Counted from the first letter of the stretch, positions 842 through 9,853 are shown. The stretch is 32,000 bases of DNA from Candidatus Saccharimonadota bacterium (GCA_049511795.1 JBEKXS010000001.1:240001-272000); one strand, 5' to 3'. A program made the numbers and translations. The notes: a model not told the origin generated them from the sequence alone.

Positions 842-1585
842 TTACTTCTTTTTCTTTGCCTCTTCAGCCTTTTTTTCAGGTTTCTTTTCTTCCACCTTTG
901 CAGCTTCAGCTGGCTTTGCTTCTCCTTCTTTTCCTGGAGCGATGGCTGCAGCTGCACCTTCAGTAGTTGTTGTTCCTGCAGCAGCGGCTGCAGCTGCTTC
1001 TGCAGCAGCCTTAGCAGCTTCTTCCTGTAACCTAATCTTTTCTTGTTCTGCCTGAACTTTAGCGAAATATTCTTGAATATTTTTCTTTTTCTCTTCTGAC
1101 ATCTTTGTCCTTTCTTCTGAAATTTCCTTGTCATACTTTCCAGCTTCAATATCCCTTATTACTTCAACTGGATTCTTGTTTTCAACGAGAACTCCAAGAG
1201 TTATGCATGTTCCCAAAACACTTTTTATTGCGTTTTTTAAATTTCTGCTCAACATATTTGGCAGTTTTGTTTTTGAGACAGAGATTATCTGTTCTATAGA
1301 AGCATTTGCAACTTTTGTCTTTTTTTGTAAGCCAGAACCTTTCTCAATTCCAAGCTCTTTTTTTAGCAATTCTGAAACAGGTGGTGAAAAAACTTTTATT
1401 TCGATATTTTTCGTTGAAACATCAATTTCAATTTCAACAGGAACTTTCATTCCTTTGAAATTCTCTGTTGCCTGATTTACTTTCTGAATAACCTGTTGAA
1501 TATTTATTCCGGCTGGCCCAAGCTTCTGGCTAAGTGCAGGACCTGGTTGCATGCTTCCGCCATCGACCAACATTTTAACTTGCAT
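842..1585 (-). CDS. rpl11: Ribosomal protein uL11 with a long low-complexity C-terminal extension
   Basis: The N-terminal ~160 aa are a typical uL11 (VDGGSMQPGPALSQKLGPAGINIQ...). The last ~87 aa are Glu/Lys coiled-coil followed by an Ala/Thr/Gly/Lys-rich tail. Confidence 0.9.
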   Translation of the reverse strand: MQVKMLVDGGSMQPGPALSQKLGPAGINIQQVIQKVNQATENFKGMKVPVEIEIDVSTKNIEIKVFSPPVSELLKKELGIEKGSGLQKKTKVANASIEQIISVSKTKLPNMLSRNLKNAIKSVLGTCITLGVLVENKNPVEVIRDIEAGKYDKEISEERTKMSEEKKKNIQEYFAKVQAEQEKIRLQEEAAKAAAEAAAAAAAGTTTTEGAAAAIAPGKEGEAKPAEAAKVEEKKPEKKAEEAKKKK

Positions 1586-2042
1586 TTTCTTCTTCTCCTT
1601 CGATTTCTTCTCTTCTTACTACGCGAACATTATCAATTTTGATTGTTACAGGCAAAGGAACAACTGCTCCAAGTAAACTGACAACTACTTCTTCCTTCTG
1701 CTTGTCAATTCTTAAAACTTTTGCTTTTTCACCCTTAAGTGTTGAACCGATTATTTCAACAATGTCGCCTTCTTTTATATCTATGTTTTCAACAGAAGGC
1801 TCCACCATATTTTTTATTTCTTCATAGGTTATTGTTTTTCCTATGATTCCCTTTACATAAGGAAGATTAAATACAGCTTCTTCAGCGCTTTCCCTGTCTT
1901 CTGCTTCCAAAAGAACATAGCCACGAAGGCCATGAGGCCTTAGGACAGCATATGCATTAAGATTCTTTTTCTCAATTCTATCTGCTATCATGTCGACTGC
2001 TTTCTCTTCCTTGTTCGTCGTGACTTTTATGATGAAAATCAT
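1575..2042 (-). CDS. spt5: Transcription elongation factor Spt5 (NusG)
   Basis: 155 aa with an NGN domain followed by a KOW motif (KEGDIVEIIGSTLKGEKAKVLRID). It sits immediately upstream of rpl11, the conserved arrangement, with an 11-nt overlap. Confidence 0.9.
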   Translation of the reverse strand: MIFIIKVTTNKEEKAVDMIADRIEKKNLNAYAVLRPHGLRGYVLLEAEDRESAEEAVFNLPYVKGIIGKTITYEEIKNMVEPSVENIDIKEGDIVEIIGSTLKGEKAKVLRIDKQKEEVVVSLLGAVVPLPVTIKIDNVRVVRREEIEGEEENAS

Positions 2043-2065
2043 TTGTTTTAGCTCCGTCTATGTCC

Positions 2066-2078
2066 TAACTTTTTAAGA
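2066..2078 (-). promoter_or_regulatory. Putative TATA box for spt5-rpl11
   Basis: The reverse strand reads TTCTTAAAAAGTT about 30 nt upstream of the ATG. A second TATA-like TTTATAAA lies at 2107-2116. Confidence 0.3.
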
Positions 2079-2119
2079 AATAGACAATATTAATTAAAGA
2101 TTTGGGTTTATAAAAGTTT

Positions 2120-2128
2120 GGTTAACTG
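2120..2128. repeat. Left copy of 9-bp direct repeat GGTTAACTG (putative target-site duplication)
   Basis: An identical 9-mer occurs at 5351-5359. Each copy lies immediately outside a terminal inverted repeat. Confidence 0.7.
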
Positions 2129-2159
2129 TGTATTGTTAACTCTAAGGGACTTTTTGATT
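2129..2159. repeat. Left terminal inverted repeat (IRL)
   Basis: TGTATTGTTAACTCTAAGGGACTTTTTGATT compared with the reverse complement of 5319-5350, TGTATTGTTAATTCTTCGGGACTTATTTGATT. By hand alignment there are 28 matches, 3 mismatches and 1 indel. Confidence 0.7.
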
Positions 2160-2188
2160 TGAAGTCCTAAAACCGAATAAGTAGAAAA

Positions 2189-2201
2189 GCTTTTAAATAA
2201 G
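2189..2201 (+). promoter_or_regulatory. Putative TATA box for the AbrB-like gene
   Basis: GCTTTTAAATAAG lies about 30 nt upstream of the ATG at 2227. Confidence 0.3.
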
Positions 2202-2226
2202 TCCAACTTAATTAAATAAGCGAAAA

Positions 2227-2466
2227 ATGACTATTAAAGACGTTCCAATTGTAGAGAAGAGGAAGCTTGTTGCTTCTGGCTCATCCGTTATGTTAGTTGT
2301 GCCTAAGCAGTGGCTTGAAGAAAACGGATTAGACAAAGGGGACGAAGTTTTAATGGTAGCAAATGGAGATTTATCATTCAAGAAAATGACAAAAGAAAAT
2401 GTAGATAAGATTAGAAATCAATTAGCAAATCATACTCAAACGAGTTCCTTAGCAACGGAGCCGTAG
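2227..2466 (+). CDS. AbrB/SpoVT/MazE-type DNA-binding protein (antitoxin-like regulator)
   Basis: 79 aa. The N-terminus VASGSSVMLVVPKQWLEENGLDKGDEVLMV matches the swapped-hairpin SpoVT-AbrB pattern. Confidence 0.7.
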   Translation: MTIKDVPIVEKRKLVASGSSVMLVVPKQWLEENGLDKGDEVLMVANGDLSFKKMTKENVDKIRNQLANHTQTSSLATEP

Positions 2467-2655
2467 AAACCTGCAGGTTTTGAAGCACGTGGAAAATCGA
2501 TAAGACGTTATTGAAATGTTTGAATTTCCTTGGGAGGGGAGAGGAAAAACGCTTGTTTGAGTGGCTTTAAGAATTATTATAAAAATTTGGCACTCATAAA
2601 TTACTTAACATCATTAAGTATATATATTTTTGTTTTTTTGCCTTTTTAAACCCTT

Positions 2656-2814
2656 TTAATCACCCTTTTTCTTTTTAGGCTCTTTGTCCCAACGAGCACT
2701 TTTACATTTAGGGCAAGTTAGAGGGCGTTCATCTCCACGAGAAAACCAAACATGACTACATTTATTGCATCTATAGGCGGTCTTCCCAAACTCTTTAATT
2801 TTTATTTCAGCCAT
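2656..2814 (-). CDS. Small zinc-ribbon protein (hypothetical)
   Basis: 52 aa from the internal Met (MAEIKIKEFGKTAYRCNKCSHVWFSRGDERPLTCPKCKSARWDKEPKKKKGD), with two CxxC pairs. A TATA-like box about 25 nt upstream of this Met supports the short form. Confidence 0.6.
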   Translation of the reverse strand: MAEIKIKEFGKTAYRCNKCSHVWFSRGDERPLTCPKCKSARWDKEPKKKKGD

Positions 2815-2834
2815 ATATTCTGTAGGTAATAATA

Positions 2835-2845
2835 CTTTATAAATC
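2835..2845 (-). promoter_or_regulatory. Putative TATA box for the zinc-ribbon gene
   Basis: The reverse strand reads GATTTATAAAG about 25 nt upstream of the ATG at 2814. Confidence 0.3.
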
Positions 2846-2909
2846 TTCCTTAATAGAGAAAGGTTTATATAGTAAGGTATACTCAATAGAGTAAGGTTAA
2901 TTAAGTAAT

Positions 2910-3821
2910 ATGGAACAAAACAAAAACGATATAGAATATAAAAAAGTATTGAAGTGTGTTAATTGTAATTCTGAAAATATAATAAAGAGGGGGCAAAGGC
3001 AAACACAGAATAGAGGAATAATTCAAAGATATGGCTGTCAAGATTGTAATAAACGTTTTGTAATTGATGATGGTTTTTTCAAGATGAAAAATACACCACA
3101 GAAAGTTACCTTGTGCTTGGATTTGTTTTATAGAGGTATTTCTACAAGAAAAGTCCAAGAACATTTACAAGCTTTCTATCCTCACAATTCTTCTAATGTT
3201 TCTATCTATAAATGGATTGTAAAATATTCTAAAATGATTTCTAAATTTACAGATAATCTAAAATTGAAAGTTGGAAAGGAATTACAGGTTGATGAGGTTG
3301 AGTATAGAGTAAATAAGAAGAAAGCATTTTTTATTGATACTATAGATACAGAAACAAGATTTATGGTTGCTTCTGAATTTAGTAGAAGTAGAAGAACAAA
3401 AGAACTAAAATATGTAATCAAAAAAGCAAAAGACAAAACAGATAACCAAATTCAAATATGCACAACAGATGGATTTTACGCATATCATAAAGCCGTCAAA
3501 TCTGTTTTCGGTTACAACAACAAATTAGGAAAATATAATGTAACTCACAATATTGTTACTCAATTAAAAAACGAGGGCTTTAATCACAAAGTTGAAAGAA
3601 TGCACAGCAATATTAGGGCAAGAACAAAAACTTTCAGGGGCTTTGGTTCTATCAAAGGAGCAAATGCAGTTATGAAAGGGTATGAAACTTACTACAATTT
3701 CATAAGAAAACATCAGGCTATAAACTGCTGTCCTTATGAATTGGCTCTGCCTGAATTAAAACTCGGCTTGAATAAGTGGCACGACCTAATTAAACTTTCA
3801 AAGCAAACCCAAAGTATTTAA
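2910..3821 (+). CDS. DDE transposase with N-terminal zinc finger (IS6/IS240-like or IS1-like)
   Basis: 303 aa. It has an N-terminal CxxC...CxxC, then candidate catalytic residues LQVDEVEY, ICTTDGFYAY and NHKVERMHSNIRARTKTFRGFGS...YNFIRKHQAI. That C-terminal pattern resembles the IS6/IS240 DDE domain. Confidence 0.75.
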   Translation: MEQNKNDIEYKKVLKCVNCNSENIIKRGQRQTQNRGIIQRYGCQDCNKRFVIDDGFFKMKNTPQKVTLCLDLFYRGISTRKVQEHLQAFYPHNSSNVSIYKWIVKYSKMISKFTDNLKLKVGKELQVDEVEYRVNKKKAFFIDTIDTETRFMVASEFSRSRRTKELKYVIKKAKDKTDNQIQICTTDGFYAYHKAVKSVFGYNNKLGKYNVTHNIVTQLKNEGFNHKVERMHSNIRARTKTFRGFGSIKGANAVMKGYETYYNFIRKHQAINCCPYELALPELKLGLNKWHDLIKLSKQTQSI

Positions 3822-3823
3822 AA

Positions 3824-5311
3824 ATGAAAAGAACTAATAAGAAATTAATGGAAACAAATGTGATTTATTGTGGAGATAGTCTTGATATTATGAAAGATTC
3901 ACAAAGATTTCCTGATGAAAGTGTTGATTTAATCTATCTTGACCCTCCCTTTTTCTCACAAAAACATTATGAAGATTTTTGGATAAAAGACAAAACTTCT
4001 AAAGTTGGTTTTTCAGATAAAGATTGGGAAAAATTAAGACATTCAATTAATCCAACCACACTAAAAGAATATGAGGAAATAGAAAAAAGATGGAAAGGTG
4101 GGCATCACGGAATTTATGTTTATATTGCATATATGAGGGAAAGATTAGAACAATGTTGGAGAGTTCTTAAAAAAACAGGAAGTATTTATCTGCATTGTGA
4201 TTCACATGCTGGACATTATCTTAAAATGATGATGGATGAGGTTTTTGGTTATGATAATTTCAAAAATGATATAGTTTGGAAAAGAACACATGCACACAAT
4301 GACCCTCAAAGATTTGGAGCAAATTCGGATAGAATTTTATTTTATACCAAATCAAATGAGTATACATTTAACATACAATATTCTAAATATGATAAAGAGT
4401 ATATTGATAATTTTTTCAAAGGAAAAGATGAAAGAGGAGTTTATCAATTAGTTATTTTAACTGGACCGAATATAAATCCAAATGACCCTACTTGGAAAAA
4501 GTATAACCCTGCTCAATCTGGAAGAAGTTGGTCTGTTCCAAAAAGAATTGTCAATAAGTTAGTAGGAAAAGAAAAAGCTTCTAAAATGTCTATTAAGGAA
4601 AGATTAGATTTACTTTATGAAAATAATTATATTGAAATAAGTAAAAACGGAGTTCCTCGTTTTAAACAATATTTGGATGATATGGAGGGGGTTCCGCTTC
4701 AAGAAATATGGATAGATATTCCTCCAATAAGCTCTAACTCAAATGAAAGGTTAGGTTATCCAACACAAAAACCAGAAGCTCTAATGGAAAGGATAATTAA
4801 GTCAAGTTCTAATGAAAATGATATTATTTTAGACCCATTTTGTGGCTGTGGAACCACTCTTGCAGTTGCTAAAAAATTAAATAGAAAGTTTATTGGCGTT
4901 GATATTTCAAGAACTGCCTGTGATGTAATGCAGAAAAGGGTTGGTGGGAAAGTTATTGGTGGAGAAAGTGAAGAAGAACTAAGAAAAATGGAACCCAACG
5001 AATTTGCAAGATTATTAGTTGTTGAGAAATTAAAGGGAACAATAAACCCAAAAAAATCTGGAGATATGGGTATAGATGGTTGGATTGAATTTATGACTAT
5101 CCCTGTTCAAGTGAAAAGATGGGGGCATAAAGTAGGCAGACCCGAAATTGATAAATTCAAGACAGCGATTGAAAGAGAACATAAAAAGAAAGGGTTGATT
5201 CTTGCTTTTGATTTTAGCAAAGATTGTTATGAAGAAGTTGAAAGAATAAAACACGAAGATAAAATAGATATTCAATTAAAAAGTGTAAAAGAGATTTTTA
5301 ATCACGATTAA
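3824..5311 (+). CDS. DNA methyltransferase (N6-adenine/N4-cytosine, beta-class order) fused to a C-terminal Mrr-type restriction endonuclease domain
   Basis: Motif IV DPPF is at nt 3941-3952 and motif I DPFCGCGTT at nt 4832-4858, so IV precedes I. The C-terminal ~110 aa carry GDMGIDG...VQVKRW, a PD-(D/E)xK (D...QxK) Mrr_cat signature. The start codon lies 2 nt after the transposase stop. Confidence 0.8.
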   Translation: MKRTNKKLMETNVIYCGDSLDIMKDSQRFPDESVDLIYLDPPFFSQKHYEDFWIKDKTSKVGFSDKDWEKLRHSINPTTLKEYEEIEKRWKGGHHGIYVYIAYMRERLEQCWRVLKKTGSIYLHCDSHAGHYLKMMMDEVFGYDNFKNDIVWKRTHAHNDPQRFGANSDRILFYTKSNEYTFNIQYSKYDKEYIDNFFKGKDERGVYQLVILTGPNINPNDPTWKKYNPAQSGRSWSVPKRIVNKLVGKEKASKMSIKERLDLLYENNYIEISKNGVPRFKQYLDDMEGVPLQEIWIDIPPISSNSNERLGYPTQKPEALMERIIKSSSNENDIILDPFCGCGTTLAVAKKLNRKFIGVDISRTACDVMQKRVGGKVIGGESEEELRKMEPNEFARLLVVEKLKGTINPKKSGDMGIDGWIEFMTIPVQVKRWGHKVGRPEIDKFKTAIEREHKKKGLILAFDFSKDCYEEVERIKHEDKIDIQLKSVKEIFNHD

Positions 5312-5318
5312 TTTTTTT
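5312..5318 (+). terminator. Oligo-T tract after the methyltransferase gene
   Basis: A T7 run directly follows the stop codon. Archaeal terminators are oligo-T tracts. Confidence 0.3.
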
Positions 5319-5350
5319 AATCAAATAAGTCCCGAAGAATTAACAATACA
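5319..5350. repeat. Right terminal inverted repeat (IRR)
   Basis: It is the reverse-complement match to 2129-2159 (see IRL). Confidence 0.7.
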
Positions 5351-5359
5351 GGTTAACTG
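5351..5359. repeat. Right copy of 9-bp direct repeat GGTTAACTG (putative target-site duplication)
   Basis: Identical to 2120-2128. It abuts the secE stop codon (5360-5362 on the minus strand). Confidence 0.7.
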
Positions 5360-5542
5360 TTAACTGAAAAATAATAGTTTAATAATAACTGCTATGAGGA
5401 ATCCTATTGCTCCGAGAAGTAAAACACCTATTGCAGAAACCTTGGCAACCATTTCAAATTCTTTTTTTGAAGGCTTTTTCAGTACAAGCCAGACTCTCTT
5501 TGATTTCTCGTAAAATGCTTTAAGCCTTTCTGTTAATACCAT
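5360..5542 (-). CDS. secE: Protein translocase subunit SecE (Sec61 gamma)
   Basis: 60 aa with an amphipathic N-terminus and a single C-terminal TM helix (VSAIGVLLLGAIGFLIAVIIKLLFF). It holds the conserved position between ftsZ and nusG. Confidence 0.8.
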   Translation of the reverse strand: MVLTERLKAFYEKSKRVWLVLKKPSKKEFEMVAKVSAIGVLLLGAIGFLIAVIIKLLFFS

Positions 5543-5562
5543 ATCTTAAATAAAATCGCCTG

Positions 5563-5574
5563 GTTTTTAAAAGT
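5563..5574 (-). promoter_or_regulatory. Putative TATA box for secE
   Basis: The reverse strand reads CTTTTAAAAACC about 25 nt upstream of the ATG, which suggests a leaderless transcript. Confidence 0.3.
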
Positions 5575-5587
5575 TTAGAAAACAAAA

Positions 5588-6673
5588 TCATTCAAAAAAT
5601 TCTATGCCCAACTCTTCCTCAATTTCACCGTGCTTGATTGTTTCCATAGTTTCTCCAGAGCCCATAATCTGGGAACTTTTAACGCCTGTAACTATGAGAA
5701 GAACACGGATTGATTTTTCCATGTCAGGAGAAATTTGTGCACCCCAAATTAATTTTGCTTCTGGATTTAGTTTTGTTCCTATTGATTCAATGATAACTTT
5801 GCATTCGTCAAGAGTCATTTCAGGGCCGCCAATTATATTGACAAGGGAACCTGTTGCATTTGAAATATCAACATCTAAAAGAGGGTTGCTTATTGCTTTT
5901 TCAACAGCCTCAATTGCCCTGTTTGTGCTGTCTGATTCTCCCATACCAATAAGAGAAACGCCTCCATCAACCATTACTGCTTTTACATCTGCAAAATCAA
6001 GATTTACAAGCCCTGCTGTTGTTACAAGTTCTGTAACTCCCTTTACAGCATTTGTCAAAATTTCATCAGCGATTTTGAAAGCCGTGTGAAGCGGCAAATC
6101 AGGCGCAAGTTCCAGAAGTTTGTCATTAGGAATAACTATCAAAGTATCGACGACAGATTCCAGCTTGTCAAGTCCATTCATTGCGTTCTCAATTCTTTTT
6201 TTACCTTCTATAGTAAAAGGCAATGTTACAACACCAATAACTAATGCTCCCTGCTTCCTTGCAAGAGATGCAACAACAGGGGCTGCTCCTGTTCCTGTTC
6301 CTCCGCCCAAACCGCATGTAATGAAAATCATATCGCTGCCTGCAATTTTTTTCTTTATTTCTGATTCTGATTCTTTTGCAGCTTCTTCTCCGACTTTTGG
6401 ATTGCTTCCTGCTCCAAGACCCTGCGTTAATTCACGACCAATGAGAATTTTCTGGTCAGCTGTACTGTATAAAAGGTCCTGAGCATCTGTATTTATTGCA
6501 ATTAATTCTCCTCCTTTAATTCCGATTTCCTTCATCCTACTTAATGAATTTCCTCCTCCTCCACCAACACCTATTACTTTTATTTTTGCAGCTTGCTTCT
6601 TAATAAGCTCTTCAAGTTCCTTGTCAATCTCTTTTACATCAGAAGTAAGATCTGTTTCATAAACATCTGCCAT
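5588..6673 (-). CDS. ftsZ: Cell division GTPase FtsZ
   Basis: 361 aa with the tubulin signatures VIGVGGGGGN and GLGGGTGTGAAPV. Confidence 0.95.
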   Translation of the reverse strand: MADVYETDLTSDVKEIDKELEELIKKQAAKIKVIGVGGGGGNSLSRMKEIGIKGGELIAINTDAQDLLYSTADQKILIGRELTQGLGAGSNPKVGEEAAKESESEIKKKIAGSDMIFITCGLGGGTGTGAAPVVASLARKQGALVIGVVTLPFTIEGKKRIENAMNGLDKLESVVDTLIVIPNDKLLELAPDLPLHTAFKIADEILTNAVKGVTELVTTAGLVNLDFADVKAVMVDGGVSLIGMGESDSTNRAIEAVEKAISNPLLDVDISNATGSLVNIIGGPEMTLDECKVIIESIGTKLNPEAKLIWGAQISPDMEKSIRVLLIVTGVKSSQIMGSGETMETIKHGEIEEELGIEFFE

Positions 6674-7489: not shown

Positions 7490-7879
7490 ATGGTCTTAAA
7501 AATTATTAATGCACATGATGCAAAACCTGGCACAAATCTCATAATTGACGGGGCTGTTTACACTGTAAAAAAAATCGATATAAGCAAAACCGGAAAACAT
7601 GGAGCATCTAAATGCAGAATAGAGTTGGAGCACATAGTTTCCGGACAAAAGAAAATAGTTGCTGTTCCTGGACATGAAAGATTTGATGTTCCTATGATTG
7701 ACAAAAGAAAGGGGCAGGTTCTTTCTGTTAATGATAACAAGGCAAGTGTCATGGATATGGAAAGTTTTGAAACACTTGACATGGAAGTTCCTGAAGAATT
7801 AAAAGCAGATATTGAACCAAATTCAAATGTCGAATACTGGGATATTGAAGGATTGAAAGTAATCAAAAGGAAAATTTAA
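7490..7879 (+). CDS. eif5a: Translation initiation factor 5A (aIF5A)
   Basis: 129 aa. The hypusination loop ISKTGKHGASK is present. Confidence 0.9.
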   Translation: MVLKIINAHDAKPGTNLIIDGAVYTVKKIDISKTGKHGASKCRIELEHIVSGQKKIVAVPGHERFDVPMIDKRKGQVLSVNDNKASVMDMESFETLDMEVPEELKADIEPNSNVEYWDIEGLKVIKRKI

Positions 7880-9496: not shown

Positions 9497-9853
9497 TTAC
9501 AAATCAACAATTCCTTCTTTTGTCAATGCTGCAAATCTTATACCAACTGGAAGATTTATGAGTGCAGAAATCAAAGCCATATGCTCTTTTCCTTCGCCAG
9601 AAGCAATGCTCAATGCAACTTCTGTCCCTCTTATCTTTCCTGTGAGCTTCTGCTTGAACTCATCGCGAAGTTCAACAAGCTTTTTGTCCAAATCCACAAG
9701 AACAAATTCAAATTTTTTCTCAGAAGTGAATTTTCTTGCAAATTCATTGCCGACAACAATTATGCTATCCCAATCTCCGTGCTTAATCAATCCAGAAACC
9801 TGGGCCCATGACCCTTTTCCAGTTGAAAGCAATGCAAGAAGTTCCATTAACAA
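9497..9853 (-). CDS. Hypothetical protein (small alpha/beta-looking)
   Basis: 118-aa ORF with normal composition and no overlap with other genes. No family was recognised. Confidence 0.5.
   Translation of the reverse strand: MLMELLALLSTGKGSWAQVSGLIKHGDWDSIIVVGNEFARKFTSEKKFEFVLVDLDKKLVELRDEFKQKLTGKIRGTEVALSIASGEGKEHMALISALINLPVGIRFAALTKEGIVDL

Follow-up and report, generated by a model that had tools for sequence, protein, structure and literature searches.

Insertion sequences (ISs) that carry cargo genes and transposon-like restriction-modification (R-M) units are both already known (PMC7986276, PMC2853133). Members of the IS6 family are ∼0.7-0.9 kb long (1.2-1.5 kb in the long forms) with one transposase gene of 213-254 amino acids (aa) (PMC7986276, PMC6807381), have 14-bp terminal repeats starting with GG and a conserved G at position 7 (PMC6807381), and generate a target-site duplication (TSD) of 8 bp, with one cargo-carrying member, ISDsp3 (PMC7986276). 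The term transporter IS (tIS) is defined in PMC7986276, and the consulted passages of PMC7986276 and PMC6807381 mention no promoter-edge target preference for IS6. The transposon-like R-M units (Furuta, Abe, and Kobayashi 2010, PMC2853133) are bacterial, isolated, flanked by 8-bp duplications and mostly without an identifiable transposase, and no archaeal case passed the filter of that study; the presence of R-M genes within repeats and a duplication supports the movement of R-M systems as transposons. Here we describe an insert in a 32,000-nucleotide (nt) stretch of DNA (hereafter the window) filed under Candidatus Saccharimonadota bacterium (GCA_049511795.1, JBEKXS010000001.1:240001-272000). 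Positions 2129-5350 of the window (3,222 bp), between secE and spt5, very probably represent an autonomous DDE transposon of the transporter IS type, belonging to a family of DPANN archaea that is directed to the upstream edge of promoters.

The ends of the insert and the host features that adjoin it are listed below by window position, where BRE denotes the transcription factor B (TFB) recognition element.

1575-2042, minus strand: spt5/nusG, flanking host gene outside the element (TIGR00405, 140 bits)
2107-2119, minus strand: spt5 target promoter, BRE/TATA AAACTTTTATAAA, motif 10/10 at the exact register
2120-2128: left TSD copy GGTTAACTG, directly outside the left arm
2129-2159, plus strand: left inverted repeat (IRL), its first 24 nt TGTATTGTTAACTCTAAGGGACTT conserved across the family
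5319-5350, minus strand: right inverted repeat (IRR), pairing with IRL
5351-5359: right TSD copy GGTTAACTG, abutting the secE stop codon (5360-5362)
5360-5542, minus strand: secE, flanking host gene outside the element (TIGR00327, 65.8 bits, cutoff 36.2)

A preliminary description, made from the sequence alone, had proposed an imperfect inverted repeat bounded by a 9-bp direct repeat. Computed gapped alignment of IRL with the reverse complement of 5319-5350 returned the figures then counted by hand (28 matches, 3 mismatches, and 1 indel), and a repeat search placed the arms at 2129-2155 and 5324-5350 with 85% complementarity. The direct repeat GGTTAACTG is present and exact at both proposed positions (2120-2128 and 5351-5359), directly outside both arms, the left junction (2120-2159) reading GGTTAACTG followed by TGTATTGTTAACTCTAAGGGACTTTTTGATT and the right junction (5319-5359) AATCAAATAAGTCCCGAAGAATTAACAATACA followed by GGTTAACTG. 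Deleting the element and one copy of GGTTAACTG leaves a secE-spt5 spacer of 86 nt, the length originally given. When the entire window was scanned for inverted repeats immediately bounded by 9-mer direct repeats at a distance of 0.7-8 kb from each other, the GGTTAACTG-flanked pair ranked first with 23/27 ungapped matches, followed by a runner-up with 16/27, and the highest score among 200 composition-preserving shuffles was 20/27, below the observed value. The identical transposase is found on 14 contigs with the same junctions, and all 24 contigs read that encode an identical Spt5 are occupied by the insert, again with the same junctions. Independent assemblies sharing these junctions derive from at least nine ENA, JGI, and Logan samples, indicating that the element did not arise by chimeric assembly.

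The methylase gene ends before the right repeat, which means that all 3.2 kb were inserted as one unit; a single pair of terminal inverted repeats with a single TSD encloses both the transposase and genes not required for transposition, as in a transporter IS or unit transposon. In relatives, different cargo is found between these ends, in line with the cargo-carrying nature proposed at the outset. The insert is thus, with high confidence, a genuine transposon. Short repeats are frequent in AT-rich DNA such as that of this region, which could be taken to mean that the repeats arose by chance or through chimeric assembly and that the four genes are ordinary residents of the locus. This is exceedingly improbable in view of the shuffle test, the recurrence of the junctions in independent assemblies, empty sites in relatives, and the same ends with 9-bp duplications at 22 other sites.

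Pfam and NCBIfam confirmed the identities first given for the flanking genes, and the gene order around the element is rpl11, spt5, the insert, secE, ftsZ. Two relatives have secE and spt5 adjacent with the insert absent, as expected if the insertion split this pair: the gap is 102 nt in L120 (Spt5 97% identical) and ∼110 nt in L018 (Spt5 87% identical). The spt5 TATA box and the leader that follows it as far as the ATG are nearly invariant in the four genomes compared, and the sequence upstream of the TATA box has diverged; these empty sites therefore show the ancestral adjacency and not a single GGTTAACTG. The spt5 promoter lies directly outside the left TSD copy and is intact after insertion. 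The secE stop codon and the spt5 BRE were originally only 9 nt apart, and these 9 nt served as the target and became the TSD. The preliminary description placed the insertion exactly after the secE stop, and the TSD does abut the stop codon; however, the point of insertion appears to be set by the spt5 promoter and not by the stop codon.

The element is one member of a family. Over 1,100 homologs of its transposase were identified, nearly all in DPANN archaea, from which 22 genome and 80 metagenome loci were taken. The same 24-nt ends, TGTATTGTTAAnTCTnnGGGACTT, surround homologous transposases in DPANN metagenome-assembled genomes and metagenomes, and 23 non-redundant complete copies (2013-6924 bp) could be delimited. 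Of these, 22 have perfect 9/9 duplications of unrelated sequence and one has 8/9, so that the pairing of inverted repeats with a TSD, initially read as a mark of DDE transposition, recurs with the same ends at 22 independent sites. Nucleotide homology to the window copy is limited to element coordinates ∼516-1716, which correspond to the zinc-ribbon and transposase genes, and the arms differ. Copies with the same cargo are colinear end to end and 75-87% identical, and they occupy different sites with different duplications. Minimal copies of ∼2.0-2.2 kb with little or no cargo also exist (L010, L020, and L057). No relatives were found on viral carriers in a scan of IMG/VR.

Some incomplete or complex loci were also seen among the relatives. 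Three independent Logan contigs (L030, L032, and L035; positions 1-312) all end 312 nt into the transposase gene; assemblies typically break off in this way where a sequence varies within the community or has repeats there. In L051 two element ends adjoin each other at ∼173, the flank containing TGTATTGTTAAAG, and a third partial repeat copy follows the right end of L116 at ∼7610-7640; both are signs of nested or tandem insertions.

The insertions have a common relationship to promoters. In the first eight loci the sequence just outside the duplication reads TTTATAAAGGTTT. In the outward direction this sequence is AAACCTTTATAAA and comprises a BRE and a TATA box that face away from the element. 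Insertions were scored as matching when at least 9/10 positions agreed with nAAnnTTTAWAWA immediately beyond one of the two duplication copies, and by this measure the motif is present at the exact register in 20 of 23. The corresponding rate was 1.05% at 9,798 intergenic control positions (P = 5e-37) and 0.96% at random positions of the same loci. The motif was first seen on genome-derived loci; metagenome loci, fetched after it had been noticed, served as a hold-out and matched in 15 of 18 cases (P = 2e-27). Among loci with a single delimited end, 7 of 13 flanks have the motif at register, which fits one side of every insertion carrying it. The downstream ATG peaks 34-36 nt past the duplication, and in the window the same motif stands 34 nt before the ATG of secE, ftsZ, FKBP, eIF5A, and others, identifying it as the host's canonical promoter for leaderless genes. 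The genes downstream of the insertions are unrelated (uS2, TFB, CorA, thioredoxin-reductase-like, DEAD-box helicase, and others). A fixed orientation of the element to the promoter was considered and ruled out, the promoter being at the left end in 15 cases and at the right end in 6.

This pattern might instead reflect random or AT-rich intergenic insertion followed by purifying selection in compact genomes. DPANN genomes are indeed very compact, nearly any other position at this locus would be harmful given the mere 9 nt from the secE stop to the BRE, and the sampled insertions, whose copies differ by 13-25%, are old enough for such filtering. However, the register is nucleotide-exact in 20 of 23 insertions even though the far side usually offers 23-135 nt of free noncoding DNA, the element nevertheless sitting flush with the BRE; intergenic controls match in only 1%; and two elements of a different, SWIM-type transposase subfamily (L116 and L118) obey the same register. 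We consider the selection explanation improbable, and active targeting the probable source of the pattern.

The second of these SWIM-type elements is at the same locus as the window copy. The sister genome L118 (GCA_027334715.1; Spt5 97% identical) has a different IS240-like element just upstream of the spt5 TATA box (2090-4915), with ends AGAGAGTGTTAAG; it encodes a transposase of the SWIM-zinc-finger type (411 aa), an N6_N4 methylase (256 aa), and an HNH nuclease. On its far side, a He_PIG/Tricorn-like gene takes the place of secE and ftsZ. This break in synteny suggests an IS-mediated rearrangement of the conserved cluster.

Promoter-referenced target choice by transposons is well known in eukaryotes. 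Ty3, Ty1, and Dictyostelium TRE5-A target Pol III genes and Tf1 targets Pol II promoters; these are retroelements with integrases, tethering of which has been shown experimentally, and the landmark used by Ty3 is TFIIIB, which contains the TATA-binding protein (TBP). They resemble the present family in inserting at a fixed short distance upstream of the transcription start, in sparing coding sequence, and in inhabiting a compact genome. In contrast, the element described here is a prokaryotic DDE transposon with BRE/TATA as the landmark, for which tethering through TBP/TFB is hypothetical. Tn7, which inserts at attTn7 downstream of glmS, recognizes one gene end via TnsD and uses a five-protein machinery. 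Like the family it occupies a harmless intergenic spot beside an essential gene; unlike Tn7, the family uses many promoters, and neither TnsABC-like genes nor integrase or resolvase (including Tn3-type resolvase) domains were found in Pfam and NCBIfam scans of the four element proteins. IS6 elements likewise have no resolvase and transpose through cointegrates.

We infer that the transposase, with its zinc finger, helix-turn-helix (HTH), and DDE domain, binds the conserved 24-nt ends, and that it would cut the target with a 9-bp stagger and join the whole 3.2-kb unit, by way of a cointegrate or by cut-and-paste, producing the GGTTAACTG duplication. The element would be directed to the upstream edge of a BRE/TATA promoter, here that of spt5, either because the transposase reads promoter sequence or shape or because it recognizes the TBP/TFB-promoter complex. 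As the downstream promoter and both neighboring genes are spared, such a site would be a safe haven for the element where the genome is very compact. The R-M cargo would probably serve in host defense and as an addiction module that stabilizes the element, and the AbrB-like and zinc-ribbon proteins may regulate or assist. A more specific proposal, which we put forward only tentatively, is that the target is found via a pre-initiation landmark, namely a TBP/TFB-bound (bent) BRE/TATA, or a BRE/TATA read by the zinc finger and HTH or by the zinc-ribbon partner, with integration exactly at its upstream edge, and that these elements are the main vehicle of R-M systems among DPANN archaea.

Several observations weigh against an active, promoter-directed transposon at this locus. 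The search for an empty site recovered the secE-spt5 adjacency of L120 and L018 but no exact empty allele with a single GGTTAACTG in look-ups of the identical Spt5 and transposase; all 24 contigs with the identical Spt5 being occupied, the copy is fixed and could be inactive. Further copies of the ends, for which the preliminary description suggested a search, are found in other DPANN archaea; the window has none besides the two ends, only one copy with this exact transposase was found, and no near-identical copies were found at two sites, a pattern that gives no sign of recent transposition. In three of the 23 insertions the exact register is without the motif, which in one of them, L072, is 1 nt off, and part of the data scored also served to derive the motif, although the hold-out result is strong. 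Nine of 23 copies have no zinc-ribbon gene.

It is accordingly conceivable that the window copy is an immobile, domesticated relic, a chromosomal R-M island whose transposase no longer acts; its single, fixed copy fits this possibility, as do the differences between the repeat arms (three positions and one indel). Against it, the transposase open reading frame (ORF) is intact and keeps all family-invariant residues including the DDE triad, the duplication is still perfect, and the gene promoters are canonical. The differences between left and right arms recur in other copies, the right-end variant GGGACTTAT..AAAAAAATTAA being common to the window copy, L022, L005, and L007, which suggests functional asymmetry and not decay. 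We regard a relic as unlikely, though deserving of some weight, and favor an autonomous transposon.

The interior of the element contains the following features.

2186-2198, plus strand: promoter of the AbrB-like gene, BRE/TATA-like AAAGCTTTTAAAT, with the ATG 41 nt downstream
2227-2466, plus strand: 79-aa AbrB/SpoVT-fold (MazE_antitoxin) protein, left arm (PF04014, 29.8 bits, cutoff 24.7)
2467-2655: noncoding stretch unique to the window copy, no function assigned
2656-2814, minus strand: 52-aa C4 zinc-ribbon protein, divergent from the transposase, its own BRE/TATA starting at 2848
2831-2871: back-to-back divergent promoters, zinc-ribbon motif at 2848 (minus) and transposase motif at 2859 (plus)
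2910-3821, plus strand: transposase, 303 aa, with N-terminal C4 zinc finger, HTH, and DDE domain (D128, D187, E229, then R236)
3811-3823, plus strand: possible internal BRE/TATA for the methylase gene, AAAGTATTTAAAA, inside the 3′ end of the transposase gene
3824-5311, plus strand: 495-aa methyltransferase-nuclease fusion, right-arm cargo (PF01555, E = 7e-49; PF04471, E = 1.4e-10)

The transposase matches the Pfam model DDE_Tnp_IS240 (PF13610; 47 bits, cutoff 27) and scores below the cutoffs of the NCBIfam models transpos_IS6 (90.9 bits, cutoff 125) and IS1 (NF033558; 42.7 bits, cutoff 100); its N-terminal zinc finger matches NF050000 with 24.1 bits, and the DDE residues are invariant in an alignment of 25 transposase sequences. 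A search for structural relatives gave only a weak match to the Mutator family (6xg8, E = 4e-4). Matches to annotated plasmid proteins are all named “IS6 family transposase” with identities of 23-28%, and a homolog 63% identical to the window copy (P0099) is named “IS1/IS6 family transposase” by NCBI. IS1 has a 9-bp (8-9) duplication, an N-terminal zinc finger, and the end consensus GGnnnTG. The element shares the 9-bp duplication and N-terminal zinc finger, and its ends (TGTATTG) resemble the IS1 consensus; it differs in having a single uninterrupted ORF without the InsA/InsB′ (InsAB′) frameshift and a catalytic domain closer to the IS240 and IS6 models.

Among annotated types, ISCpe7, of the long clostridial zinc-finger branch of IS6/IS26, is the nearest; its transposase and that of the element are 27% identical (E = 7e-19, zinc finger and DDE residues aligned) and share an architecture of zinc finger, HTH, and DDE followed by K/R. 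The IS26 end is GGCACTGTTGCAAA. A TGTT core is common to this end and those of the family (TGTATTGTTAA...), as is the G at position 7 (the conserved G7 as given in PMC6807381); the family ends begin with TG where IS6 ends begin with GG, and are conserved to 24 nt. The ISCpe7-type branch corresponds to clade h of Varani et al. (2021) and to clades VII-VIII of Harmer and Hall (2019).

Taken together, the profile matches, the NCBI and plasmid annotations, and the IS1-like traits could be held to indicate an ordinary member of the catalogued IS6 or IS1 family in which only the host is novel. We find this quite improbable. Besides the subthreshold profile scores, the low identity to annotated IS6 proteins, and the single-ORF transposase, the duplication is 9 bp in the window copy and in 22 of 23 non-redundant relatives and not the 8 bp of IS6. 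The window copy is 3,222 bp and its smallest relatives are 2013-2202 bp, giving a minimum of 2.0 kb compared with ∼0.8 kb for IS6; the transposase has ∼300 aa, most copies carry cargo, accessory and cargo genes being the rule, and the hosts are DPANN archaea. On sequence comparison, the element is best described as a member of a putative separate family within the IS6/IS240 superfamily, distantly related to IS6 itself. The family is set apart here by Pfam and NCBIfam profiles and published descriptions of IS6.

Of the three nontransposase genes in the preliminary description, Pfam and NCBIfam supported the identities given (AbrB-like, zinc-ribbon, and methyltransferase-nuclease); the zinc-ribbon gene, however, often accompanies the transposase (14 of the 23 complete copies have it) and is not cargo. 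It encodes the signature KCxxC...W.PR...CPKCKS..W(D/N)KP, is also called as a 52-aa gene in independent assemblies, and has its ATG exactly 34 nt downstream of the start of its own BRE/TATA motif. All its Pfam matches were below cutoffs, PADLOC gave no match, and a PDB sequence search returned nothing significant (best Pf0610, E = 0.013). An obligatory core role for this gene was ruled out by the nine copies that lack it. Homologs of the AbrB-like gene are found at the same position in L010, L057, L072, and L091, and its product is presumed to be a DNA-binding regulator; both it and the zinc-ribbon protein are probably DNA-binding regulators or accessory factors. A role as the antitoxin of a toxin-antitoxin pair was rejected, as there is no toxin gene and the gene is also present in cargo-free copies. 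The stretch between these two genes (2467-2655) folds no better than shuffled sequences (z-scores −0.27 and −0.84), Rfam gave no match to RNA genes across 1500-5700, and nucleotide homology to relatives starts at ∼2644.

The cargo protein of the window copy combines a beta-class N6_N4 DNA methyltransferase (LDPPFF, FCGCGTT), with the motif IV DPPF/Y and AdoMet motif FxGxG of DNA methyltransferases, and a C-terminal Mrr_cat nuclease domain of the PD-(D/E)xK type (residues 387-484, with D...QVK residues). PADLOC labels it MTase_II, and its domain composition indicates that it is a putative single-polypeptide R-M enzyme of type II (IIC/IIG-like). The second ATG of the gene (3848) is 37 nt downstream of the possible internal BRE/TATA. 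The fused methylase-Mrr architecture has more than 8,000 homologs; the closest relative outside the species is 81% identical and follows an IS240-like transposase in L116.

A DNA methyltransferase gene lies directly 3′ of the transposase gene in most copies, and its type varies: N6_N4 in the window copy, L008, L042, L049, L085, L091, and L095; C5 in L022, L036, L046, L047, L052, and L055; D12 in L039; and an N6_Mtase fused to a specificity domain in L097. The C5 elements have a partner gene for a Bsp6I-type endonuclease at their left end; the partner in L042 is MvaI/BcnI, L046 and L055 carry Vsr, and several conserved proteins of 180-230 aa with no assigned function occupy the position expected for an endonuclease. 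As judged from these predicted products, the variable arms are mostly R-M modules, and the transposase often separates an R gene on one arm from an M gene on the other. The previously described transposon-like units likewise have R-M genes within imperfect inverted repeats and a short duplication (PMC2853133), and the present family differs from them in its own central transposase, its interchangeable cargo, and this frequent separation of R and M. AAA+ proteins accompany R-M genes in the left arm of L055 (4156-5685, ORC/CDC6-like, 509 aa) and L042 (230-1285, AAA+ and winged HTH, 351 aa). In L117, an IS605 OrfB/TnpB (Cas12f-like) gene (5280-6446) lies ∼3.7 kb from another methylase-Mrr homolog, with a MazE/AbrB-like gene nearby.

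Additional features were observed in the host locus and its relatives. Sources name the organism Candidatus Pacearchaeota. Unlike most neighboring genes spt5 is not leaderless, and its leader of ∼65 nt (2043-2106, minus strand) contains a hairpin, GTCTAT...ATAGAC, followed by GGAG, and may have a role in regulating the spt5-rpl11 operon. The rpl11 ORF (842-1585, minus strand) encodes 247 aa with a long Ala-, Glu-, and Lys-rich C-terminal tail (…AAKAAAEAAAAAAAGTTTT…KKAEEAKKKK) past the Pfam L11 domains. A CAGTTAA tandem repeat spans the secE stop and the target (5351-5369; TTCAGTTAA followed by CAGTTAACC, minus strand) and could be due to chance or be the footprint of an earlier event. In L120 (2973-4665 and 6281-7084), ftsZ is called as three fragments, possibly through assembly frameshifts; between it and secE there is an ORF of 254 aa, at a position where L018 has ∼800 extra bp, and a LAGLIDADG-type ORF lies between rpl11 and rpl37ae.

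Full-text literature searches found no description of this transposon family or of BRE/TATA-edge insertion, and no report of an archaeal or bacterial transposon whose insertions keep a fixed register, exact to the nucleotide, with BRE/TATA. Targeting of this kind, if real, offers a testable model of how mobile elements survive in a genome with almost no spare DNA, and the insertion sites could mark functional promoters in uncultured DPANN archaea. If the landmark proposal were true, Ty3/TFIIIB targeting would have a prokaryotic counterpart in this DDE transposon family. The synteny break of L118 at the same spot suggests that such elements also drive the rearrangement of conserved gene clusters. 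CRISPR is reported to be rare in DPANN archaea; arms that swap methyltransferases and endonucleases around a common transposase would be a concrete route by which the defense repertoire of these archaea moves and diversifies.

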